Assembly (NCBI GenBank): GCA_022828225.1
Contig: JAJEJG010000002.1
Location: 20,268-84,267, forward strand
Source of the DNA: Nitrospirales bacterium
GTDB lineage: Bacteria > Nitrospirota > Nitrospiria > Nitrospirales > UBA8639
Reading direction: 5' to 3'
DNA: 64,000 nucleotides
In this document: positions 21,309 to 35,923 of the stretch, in pieces
How positions within the stretch are numbered: position 1 is the stretch's first letter
How the letters are laid out: each line of letters starts with the position of its first letter
Notes under the pieces: generated by a model
Told to the model about the DNA's origin: nothing
Seen by the model: only the letters and a program-made list of their open reading frames with translations
Databases searched by the model: none
Made by a program: the position numbers and the translations under genes

Positions 21309-21429
21309 CTCTACCTCCCCTCACCCCTCCCCTTCGACAAGCTCAGGACAGGCTTACAAAGGAGGGGAAGCAGGAAGGAGTGCTTGTCGTTACCTCCCCT
21401 TTGTAAGGGGAGGGCAGGGTGGGGTAGAG
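21309..21429. repeat. Family-B inverted pair (B5); the left unit carries a family-C insertion
   Basis: CTCTACCTCCCCTCACCCCTCCCCTT-[CGACAAGCTCAGGACAGGC]-TTACAAAGGAGGGGA (21309-21368). Intact unit at 21392-21429. Confidence 0.8.
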
Positions 21430-35104: not shown

Positions 35105-35107
35105 TTA

Positions 35108-35127
35108 TTCCTCCCCTTTGTAAGAGG
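35108..35127. repeat. Left half of a split family-B unit (B8) including the left copy of the duplication
   Basis: TTCCTC-CCCTTTGTAAGAGG. 35114-35127 matches 35660-35673 (CCCTTTGTAAGGGG) at 13 of 14 positions. Confidence 0.7.
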
Positions 35128-35659
35128 AATTATGTAGCAAGATCCGCTGGCAAGAAAATCACCACTGTTCCGACTCATACTGCAAGGTATTTGGACATTC
35201 ACCTACTCAATATACTGAATCACCGTTCTTAAAATTACGAACATGAGCAGAAAAAACAGAATCGGTATGGATATGAACGTAAAAAGTCCTAGCAGTTCCC
35301 TTGCTTCGTTCGGAAATATGTCTTTTAGTGCATGCGCTAAAAACCCTTCTGATGTCACCGTCTCGTCCTTGTCTATAGTCGCACGATTACGATTATCTTG
35401 ACCATCTCTAGGCCAAACAATAAAGGCAACAAGGAAACCGACAAAGGCTATGATAAGCCATATCCAATGAGGTGCATCTGGAAACATGATGCCTACCCAA
35501 CACCCCAAAGCAAAAATCGCGGCTTCACAACAACCAATGGCGATAAGCTTTCGAGCCCACTCCATGCCGCAAACTTAGAATGGTGGCCGTGCTTTGTCAA
35601 AAGCATCTTTCCTGCCCAAAAAAATCACACCAAGTATTTGCGGATTTTGCTGCATAAAT
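35128..35659. mobile_element. 532-bp AT-rich element with terminal inverted repeats, one cargo ORF and no transposase
   Basis: Left end AATTATGTAGCAAGATCCGC (35128-35147). The reverse complement of the right end (35640-35659) is ATTTATGCAGCAAAATCCGC, a 17/20 match. Flanked by 14-bp direct repeats. Removing the element plus one repeat restores a canonical family-B unit. Confidence 0.75.
35203..35565 (-). CDS. Small integral membrane protein (cargo of the terminal-inverted-repeat element)
   Basis: 120 aa. Hydrophobic segments LIAIGCCEAAIFALGCWVGIMF, WIWLIIAFVGFLVAFIVW and LLGLFTFISIPILFFLLMFVIL. AT-rich codon usage unlike neighbouring genes. Confidence 0.55.
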   Translation of the reverse strand: MEWARKLIAIGCCEAAIFALGCWVGIMFPDAPHWIWLIIAFVGFLVAFIVWPRDGQDNRNRATIDKDETVTSEGFLAHALKDIFPNEARELLGLFTFISIPILFFLLMFVILRTVIQYIE

Positions 35660-35690
35660 CCCTTTGTAAGGGGAGGGCAGGGTGGGGTAG
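35660..35690. repeat. Right half of the split family-B unit (B9)
   Basis: CCCTTTGTAAGGGGAGGGCAGGGTGGGGTAG. Confidence 0.75.
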
Positions 35691-35710
35691 CGTCTTTGCT
35701 TTTCTTTTTC

Positions 35711-35809
35711 TGTCATTCCCGACATCCTTAATCGGGAATCCAGAGTCTTTGCTTTTTCCTCAGGTGTGCAGGATAAAGACGCTGGATTCCTGCTTTCGCA
35801 GGAATGACA
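35711..35809. repeat. Family-A element (A8)
   Basis: TGTCATTCCCGACATCCTTAATCGGGAATCCAGAGTCTTT...AAAGACGCTGGATTCCTGCTTTCGCAGGAATGACA. Confidence 0.85.
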
Positions 35810-35923
35810 GAAGGGGGCGTCGGGGAAATGACAAGCGTCGGTTTCTTGCCTCCTGTGTCCTAACCGAGTTCGGTGCTTTGCAAATGAAGCCGGTTGGGTA
35901 GTAAGGTACGTCGCTTACGCAAT

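Follow-up and report, generated by a model that had tools for sequence, protein, structure and literature searches.

A probable transposase-less IS1595-family derivative carrying a small membrane-protein gene, inserted in a hairpin repeat of a Nitrospirales bacterium

The 64,000-nt stretch of Nitrospirales DNA that we analyzed (hereafter, the window) harbors, just downstream of a uvrD-like gene, a 538-bp element (35125-35662) that is very probably a transposase-less derivative of the IS1595 family, either MIC-like or the stump of a transporter IS. This appears to be the best explanation because of the homology of the element ends, the 8-bp target-site duplication, the clean insertion footprint, the foreign composition, and the link between the passenger gene family and IS1595 transposases; the 538-bp form is known from a single copy and is thus no more than a candidate for mobility as a cassette. 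An earlier sequence-only reading of this DNA, whose quoted strings were all present where it had placed them, had described a 532-bp element with a 14-bp duplication that fitted no common IS family, and our analysis revises both the length and the borders.

Ends, target-site duplication and insertion footprint

The features of the element and its flanks, in window coordinates, are as follows.

35108..35116, plus strand: 5' stem half of the split family-B unit, TTCCTCCCC; fits the head of the repeat consensus and is colinear with the intact unit of L004
35117..35124, no strand: left 8-bp target-site duplication, TTTGTAAG, that is, the hairpin loop and neighboring stem bases; 8/8 identical to 35663-35670
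35125..35148, plus strand: left 24-nt terminal inverted repeat, AGGAATTATGTAGCAAGATCCGCT; 21/24 to the consensus GGGAATTATGTAGCAAAATCCGCA
35203..35565, minus strand: passenger gene encoding a 120-aa protein of an uncharacterized family with three hydrophobic helices (HMMER homologs, hydropathy, AF2)
35572..35600, minus strand: candidate promoter of the passenger gene, TTGACA, 17 nt, TAAGTT, ending 6 nt before the ATG (inferred, weak)
35639..35662, minus strand: right 24-nt terminal inverted repeat, reverse complement GGGATTTATGCAGCAAAATCCGCA; 22/24 to the consensus
35663..35670, no strand: right 8-bp target-site duplication, TTTGTAAG; 8/8 to the left copy
35671..35690, plus strand: 3' remainder of the split family-B unit, GGGAGGGCAGGGTGGGGTAG; identical to the tail of the unit at 21397

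The borders are set by the consensus of the 24-nt inverted repeats, which was built from 15 related loci (11 to 13 distinct) and can be written as the search pattern GGGAWTTATGYAGCAARATCCGC; the left and right repeats of the window element agree with each other at just 19/24 positions. The inverted pair seen in the sequence-only reading is real, and its 20-nt end, AATTATGTAGCAAGATCCGC, is confined in the 64-kb window to 35128-35147 and, in inverted orientation with 3 mismatches, 35640-35659 (0 occurrences expected); the true ends, however, are 24 nt long, as established from the relatives. Because GGGA lies within the end at no fewer than 13 non-hairpin ends, AGGA (35125-28) and TCCC (35659-62) of the window belong to the element, and with this assignment the duplication is 8 bp. 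The interior of the element is A/T-rich, as had been noticed, with a GC content of 0.43 compared to 0.58 in the flanks, and 74% of it is occupied by one open reading frame (ORF) of 120 codons.

The target is a unit of a hairpin repeat, family B (consensus ttCCTCCCCTTTGTAAGGGGAGGgcagggtggggtagag), which has a sibling, B-prime (ttCCCCTCCTTTGTAAGGAGGGG...), with compensatory stem changes relative to B. The halves of B are CCTCCCCTTTGTAAGGGGAGG and gcagggtggggtagag, and those of B-prime are CCCCTCCTTTGTAAGGAGGGG and cgaggggaggtagag. The units in the window are located as follows.

5729, 5770, 11756, 11847, 15199, 15294, 21397, 29320: B/B-prime units
32971, 33065, 42132, 42278, 47513, 47607, 51309, 51356: B/B-prime units, continued

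These units usually occur as convergent pairs 95-150 bp apart or as divergent pairs ~20-30 bp apart, and the pairing suggests a MITE-like or REP/BIME-like composite; the B/B-prime hairpins had no match in Rfam, which returned nothing for 30-40 kb of the window either.

The 5' stem half of the split unit begins 4 nt after the stop codon of the uvrD-like gene, so that the left flank of the element is the head of a B unit and the right flank is its tail. Removing the element and one copy of the repeat in silico restores a canonical unit, which bears out the clean footprint claimed previously. The expected empty-site sequence, with 35124 joined directly to 35671, is ...CCCCTTTGTAAGGGGAGGG..., and the excised window is colinear with an uninterrupted hairpin unit at the orthologous position of L004 and for ~25 nt further. 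For the empty sites in related strains that had been proposed as a check, L004 is the nearest available equivalent, the unit at this position being an intact B-prime. Part of the hairpin that follows uvrD is preserved, as a stem of 7-9 bp (ATTCCTC...GAGGAAT) forms anew at the left junction. Upstream of uvrD in L004 (minus strand, ~5975), another B-prime unit is split directly after TTTGTAAG by 22 nt, cctgtcctgagcctgtcgaagg; the break falls at the same loop/stem boundary as the insertion in the window, where the orthologous unit (33065) is intact.

A transposase was found neither in the element (Pfam) nor elsewhere in the 64-kb window (Pfam and tblastn), and the 55 nt separating the left end from the ORF stop codon contain no trace of one, so that the description of the element as a single membrane-protein gene with no transposase holds. 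A candidate C-terminal transposase relic (HTARYLD) at 35149-35232 was dropped given its shuffle p value of ~0.1-0.3. Scans of the window and of the sequence collections, as well as database searches, yielded no second copy of the 538-bp form, and plasmid and phage sequences gave no blastn match to the element. The only locus with the element is represented in three assemblies of the same population; the locus, including the insertion, is found on a 269-kb metagenome scaffold and two short Logan contigs.

Related ends enclose IS1595-family transposases

Scanning JGI metagenome contigs with the 18-nt core TTATGYAGCAARATCCGC of the end identified 76 loci, most of which resemble chance matches. 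A subset, however, shares bases absent from the query, namely, outer GGGA(A/C/T) and inner A, from which the 24-nt consensus follows, and many single ends carry 5 additional outer nt (GGGAA/GGGAC) beyond the 18-nt query. This related subset (L013/38, L020/31/32, L024, L041, L044/74, L045, L049, L054, L058, L072, L082) comes mainly from Mediterranean sponge microbiomes (assemblies MKWU and LXNI; PMC5099237, PMC5649159). A scan of viral contigs with the 18-mer gave a single, chance-like match.

At the loci with both ends, these are in inverted orientation and enclose discrete elements, one of 1.3 kb and two of 3.4 kb among the inverted pairs from the 18-nt scan. Between the ends of the two 3.4-kb elements (L082 and L074), we found a stop-interrupted coding sequence with the Zn_ribbon_IS1595 and DDE_Tnp_IS1595 (58 bits) domains, along with EcoRI-like methylase and GmrSD/HNH genes; further transposase fragments are present at L013 and L045. 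As a check free of the DNA seed, the N-terminus of the L082 transposase was used as a protein query, and the genes of two close homologs, P0021 and P0052, were inspected, both of which have the same type of end ~35-70 nt upstream. In L097/L098, TGGAACTATGTAGCAAAACCCGCA lies 70 nt upstream of the transposase gene, and the 2576-bp element of L099 is complete, its ends being GGGATTTATGTAGCAAAATCAGAA and the inverted counterpart and its duplication, AATTCAAT, a perfect 8-mer. IS1595-family DDE transposases are encoded between these ends in L074, L082, L097 and L099, and homologs of these transposases carry the PGAP label 'IS1595 family transposase'. The search for other copies and for an autonomous partner that had been advised earlier was therefore successful for the ends and for transposase-encoding partners, but not for a further copy of the 538-bp form.

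The duplications flanking the compared elements match at 8/8 positions in the window and in L099, 7/8 in L054, 6/8 in L082 and 5/8 in L074, and in L049 they are out of register; imperfect duplications (L074, L049) belong to some older relatives. Every junction of the compared elements is A/T-rich. Beyond the 24-nt ends, the window element has no interior similarity to its relatives, and no convincing subterminal similarity to them was found.

These properties agree with those of the IS1595 family, members of which are usually flanked by 8-bp duplications (PMC8101967); one member, ISApl4, prefers A/T-rich 8-mers and has ends beginning with GGGG (PMC12561309). The window element is similar in that its ends are homologous to those of elements with Zn_ribbon_IS1595 and DDE_Tnp_IS1595 domains and begin with GG(G), and in the length (8 bp) and A/T-richness of its duplication. 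The earlier view that no common IS family would match is thus not supported, an 8-bp A/T-rich duplication being typical of IS1595 (PMC8101967, PMC12561309). The difference from an autonomous IS1595 IS, which encodes a DDE_Tnp_IS1595 protein, usually with an N-terminal Zn-ribbon, is that the window element lacks a transposase and has a gene for a small membrane protein as its sole gene. ISfinder gives 'ggnnatTAT' for the ends of the ISNwi1 group, a pattern that GGGAATTAT would fit.

The transposases of this end lineage are mostly split or short: that of L082 (10622-11554) contains in-frame stops, that of L099 (4001-4946) is divided into 245 and 64 aa in different frames, and L097 (162-896) is another example. 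An intact ~300-aa transposase with exactly these ends was not found, all 77 of the 77 homologs (P0019-P0095) being either no longer than 251 aa or split; for comparison, the L089 transposase discussed below is 305 aa long. Either such decay is widespread among sponge symbionts, or these genes are subject to some kind of recoding. A conserved box, ACATATAATAATC(C/A)GCA, is found upstream of the transposase start codon, on the inner side of the transposase-proximal end (L074:~13040, L082:~10590, L097:~125, L099:~3985), and probably represents the promoter of this gene; no such box is present in the window element.

A passenger gene family associated with IS1595 transposases

An exhaustive HMMER search of 1.84 billion representative proteins with the 120-aa ORF product returned 18 matches at E ≤1e-3, one of which, P0001, is the same protein truncated to 94 aa, leaving 17 distant homologs; the best of these has an E-value of 5e-21 and 43% identity over the full length. 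These results overturned the view of the ORF as an orphan, which came from a word-indexed protein search that found the query alone. The family has an N-terminal two-helix hairpin (IACCExAIFAxGxW...MFPDAPHWVWL...VW..P), followed by a variable hydrophilic linker and a DIFP motif, and, in one subgroup, a C-terminal hydrophobic helix. Structure prediction of the ORF, which had been advised earlier, was run with AF2 on the single sequence and on a 9-sequence alignment; both runs reached a pLDDT of ~66, and the predicted helices (2-27, 33-50 and 86-119) agree with hydropathy. The GC3 of the ORF is 0.41 compared to 0.70 in neighboring host genes, and open frames of 120 codons or more appeared in 1.3% of shuffles. 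Judged by its sequence, the ORF is evidently a real, foreign gene. As to its function, neither Pfam nor PADLOC gave a match, and PHROGs gave just phrog_5405 (unknown function).

In a promoter and terminator scan, nothing passed the criteria for this ORF, the -10 hexamer of the TTGACA-17-TAAGTT candidate matching at 3/6 positions, and no Shine-Dalgarno sequence precedes the ATG. The candidate promoter may nevertheless drive a leaderless or near-leaderless mRNA.

Among seven independent other contexts of the ORF homologs, four contain an IS1595-family transposase that is convergent with the homolog and lies within 0.6 kb of it. The L089 homolog is part of a 1.45-kb IS that has different ends (CTTGACTCCCTA...) and encodes an intact transposase of 305 aa. 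The convergent transposase is near-intact in L095, and in L096 and L088, the latter containing the closest homolog of the ORF, C-terminal remnants of 63 and 57 aa, respectively, are left. No transposase was found beside the homologs in L090, L091-93 and the very short L094, and we did not find a full-length element joining the ends described here with an ORF of this type. This uncharacterized family of small membrane proteins thus recurrently travels with IS1595 transposases.

In L091, L092 and L093, from the KELL22-1 project that also yielded the window, a 117-aa protein paralogous to the passenger product (P0006, 39% identical) is encoded next to a Peptidase_S8 gene, with HATPase_c_3 and UvrD/PDDEXK genes in the vicinity, no IS1595 transposase, and downstream sequence that varies between the contigs. 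This context resembles a defense island.

Origin of the element and alternative explanations

We propose that an IS1595-type DDE transposase would have cut, with an 8-bp stagger, at the A/T-rich loop of the GC-rich family-B hairpin, 4 nt past the stop codon of the uvrD-like gene, and that these staggered cuts would have given rise to the duplication. The transposase could have been encoded by the element at the time of insertion or supplied in trans, and its gene was presumably lost through internal deletion, a process that appears to be in progress beside the homologs in L088 and L096. The hairpin loop (TTTGTAA) would have been chosen simply for offering an A/T-rich 8-mer locally, the genome being 60% GC, and the ORF would be expressed from a promoter immediately upstream.

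The relationship to known types of elements is as follows. MICs, which contain passenger genes and no transposase, and transporter ISs are established kinds of elements (PMC3129680), the latter with passenger genes as described by Siguier, Gagnevin and Chandler (2009, as cited in PMC3129680 and PMC8101967). Passenger genes are likewise frequent in the end lineage described here (R-M and GmrSD modules, tnpB, and others). Similar to MICs, examples of which are the qnrD MICs (PMC3913671) and MIC231, derived from IS231 of Bacillus cereus (De Palmenaer et al. 2004, as cited in PMC3129680), the window element consists of IS-type inverted repeats around one passenger gene, with a target-site duplication and no transposase, and it might in principle be mobilized in trans. 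Unlike MIC231, it derives, on our reading, from IS1595 rather than IS4, was seen in one copy, and has no cognate transposase in the 64-kb window. The element also resembles MITEs in being short, bounded by inverted repeats, non-autonomous, and flanked by a target-site duplication, but whereas MITEs are non-coding and reach high copy numbers, its interior is mostly a conserved protein-coding gene and it is present in one copy in the available data. The IS200/IS605 elements, with tnpA/tnpB genes, subterminal hairpins, and neither inverted repeats nor duplications, differ from the window element, which has both repeats and duplication and no tnpB. Nothing in these observations alters the understanding of transposition.

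In a sub-variant of our preferred explanation, to which we assign slightly less than an even chance, a full transporter IS with both transposase and ORF inserted at this site, the transposase was later deleted in place, and the 538-bp unit itself never moved. This scenario accounts for the single known copy, for the predominance of broken transposases in the end lineage, and for the graded erosion of the transposase next to the ORF homologs, from L089 through L095 and L096 to L088, a series which implies that in-place decay is common. Against it, the 55-nt segment from the left end to the ORF stop codon is free of any transposase trace, and the intact ends and duplication are compatible with mobilization in trans as well.

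Quite unlikely, in our assessment, is structure-directed targeting, in which the transposase would specifically recognize REP-like hairpins rather than A/T-rich 8-mers. The IS110/IS1111-type ISs that target REP sequences and hairpins have DEDD transposases and sequence- or structure-specific targeting, with REP sequences as their obligatory target, and usually produce no duplication or an atypical one. The window element resembles them in its insertion inside a repetitive extragenic hairpin, and two independent insertions, in the window (ttCCTCCCCTTTGTAAG|) and in L045 (ttCCCCTCTTTTGCAAG|), abut closely similar hairpins. However, ~12 other junctions lie in ordinary, hairpin-free A/T-rich sequence, and a third apparent case, L033, where a hairpin-like flank adjoins the 18-mer, is located upstream of a serine recombinase gene and was treated as probably unrelated. 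The window element further departs from the IS110/IS1111 type in its DDE-type 8-bp duplication, the lack of a DEDD gene, and sister insertions that are mostly outside hairpins. Of the previous characterization as a non-autonomous, cargo-carrying, hairpin-targeting element, the first two parts are therefore upheld, but targeting is not general, with 2 of ~14 sites in hairpins; on the compared junctions, the hairpin is probably incidental.

The sequence-only reading favored a novel non-autonomous element with 20-nt ends and a 14-bp duplication, belonging to no common IS family; together with a further variant, integration by a site-specific recombinase with a 14-bp core, we consider this very improbable. 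The model draws on a literal 13/14 direct repeat that flanks the 20-nt inverted repeats. This repeat, with the 14-mer CCCTTTGTAAGGGG, nevertheless resolves into the perfect 8-bp duplication and the outermost 3-4 nt of each 24-nt inverted repeat (AGGA.../...TCCC), and its sole mismatch (GAGG vs GGGG) falls exactly in the portion reassigned to the inverted repeat. The position of GGGA(A/C/T) inside the end at the 13 or more ends in non-hairpin contexts leaves 8 bp, complete relatives have 8-bp duplications, and a recombinase is absent. The 14-bp duplication fitting no family is, in the light of the aligned ends, evidently an artefact: the terminal GGG/CCC of the inverted repeats prolong the G/C stem of the target hairpin and were misread as part of it. 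This case cautions that transposon ends defined on a single copy can mislead.

The last reading, in which the palindromic family-B repeats generate the inverted and direct repeats by chance similarity and the ORF is not a real gene, has a negligible probability: although the 14-mer is partly palindromic and belongs to a high-copy hairpin repeat (18 matches at ≤2 mismatches vs 0.37 expected in the 64-kb window), the 20- to 24-nt end is missing from the other 16 units of the window and is seen again at IS1595 element termini on unrelated contigs, and the ORF has significant homologs.

TnpB between IS1595-type ends

The 1.3-kb elements of the end lineage are complete in L049 (5061-6356) and L054 (3517-4812), with partial counterparts in L024, L041 and L058. 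In these, a 416-aa TnpB is the sole gene product encoded between 24-nt IS1595-type inverted repeats, with duplications of ~8 bp. The protein contains the HTH_OrfB_IS605, OrfB_IS605 and Cas12f1-like_TNB domains, with intact RuvC-like motifs (VGIDRN / EALNIRGM / DDADVNAALNI). The tnpB reading frame opens 17 nt inward of the left end and terminates within the right end itself, such that IS605-style ends cannot fit. At the position of the conserved box seen upstream of the transposase genes, the tnpB versions have TATAAT. A full-text literature search retrieved no paper tying TnpB to IS1595. One end lineage in sponge microbiomes thus moves highly varied cargo, including R-M/GmrSD modules and tnpB.

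A broader, speculative reading, which we regard as rather unlikely, is that the membrane-protein gene may serve several IS1595 clades as a conserved accessory, acting for instance in addiction or regulation, with the end lineage then being a shared sponge-symbiont shuttle for defense modules and tnpB. If this were true, bacterial tnpB genes within DDE-type inverted repeats would parallel the Fanzor genes carried by TIR transposons. In a weaker variant of that reading, the transposase would truly prefer the loops of REP-like hairpins.

The uvrD-ndt spacer is an insertion hot spot

The element resides in the spacer between uvrD and a nucleoside 2-deoxyribosyltransferase gene (ndt; identified with Pfam), which has the following coordinates.

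35105-35921 of the window; around 7980-8300 in L004-L010: uvrD-ndt spacer

The flanking uvrD-like helicase gene has orthologs with 84-93% identity in seven Nitrospirales/Nitrospira MAGs of the sponge-associated type, of which L004 is the closest relative (UvrD 93% identical). The spacer is hypervariable among these relatives. It is minimal in L008 (~50 bp, repeat-free), contains other repeats in L005, L006 and L009, and in L004 consists of the hairpin unit followed by an IS4-like (DUF4372 + DDE_Tnp_1) transposase. In L007 and L010, the spacers are A/T-rich islands with a common start (cttagccccgttcgatatgattgac...), and that of L010 encodes a 1644-aa Csx12-type (type II-B) Cas9. This Nitrospirales lineage has an insertion hot spot in the uvrD-ndt spacer.

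Just to the right of the element, at 35700-35835 of the window, the spacer contains a different repeat, ctgtcattcccgac...ggaatgacag, with an inverted pair matching at 12/12 positions (35708-19 and 35801-12) and a 21-nt pair with 86% identity (35730-50 and 35775-95). Relatives of this repeat are present in L005 and at ~36700 of the window.
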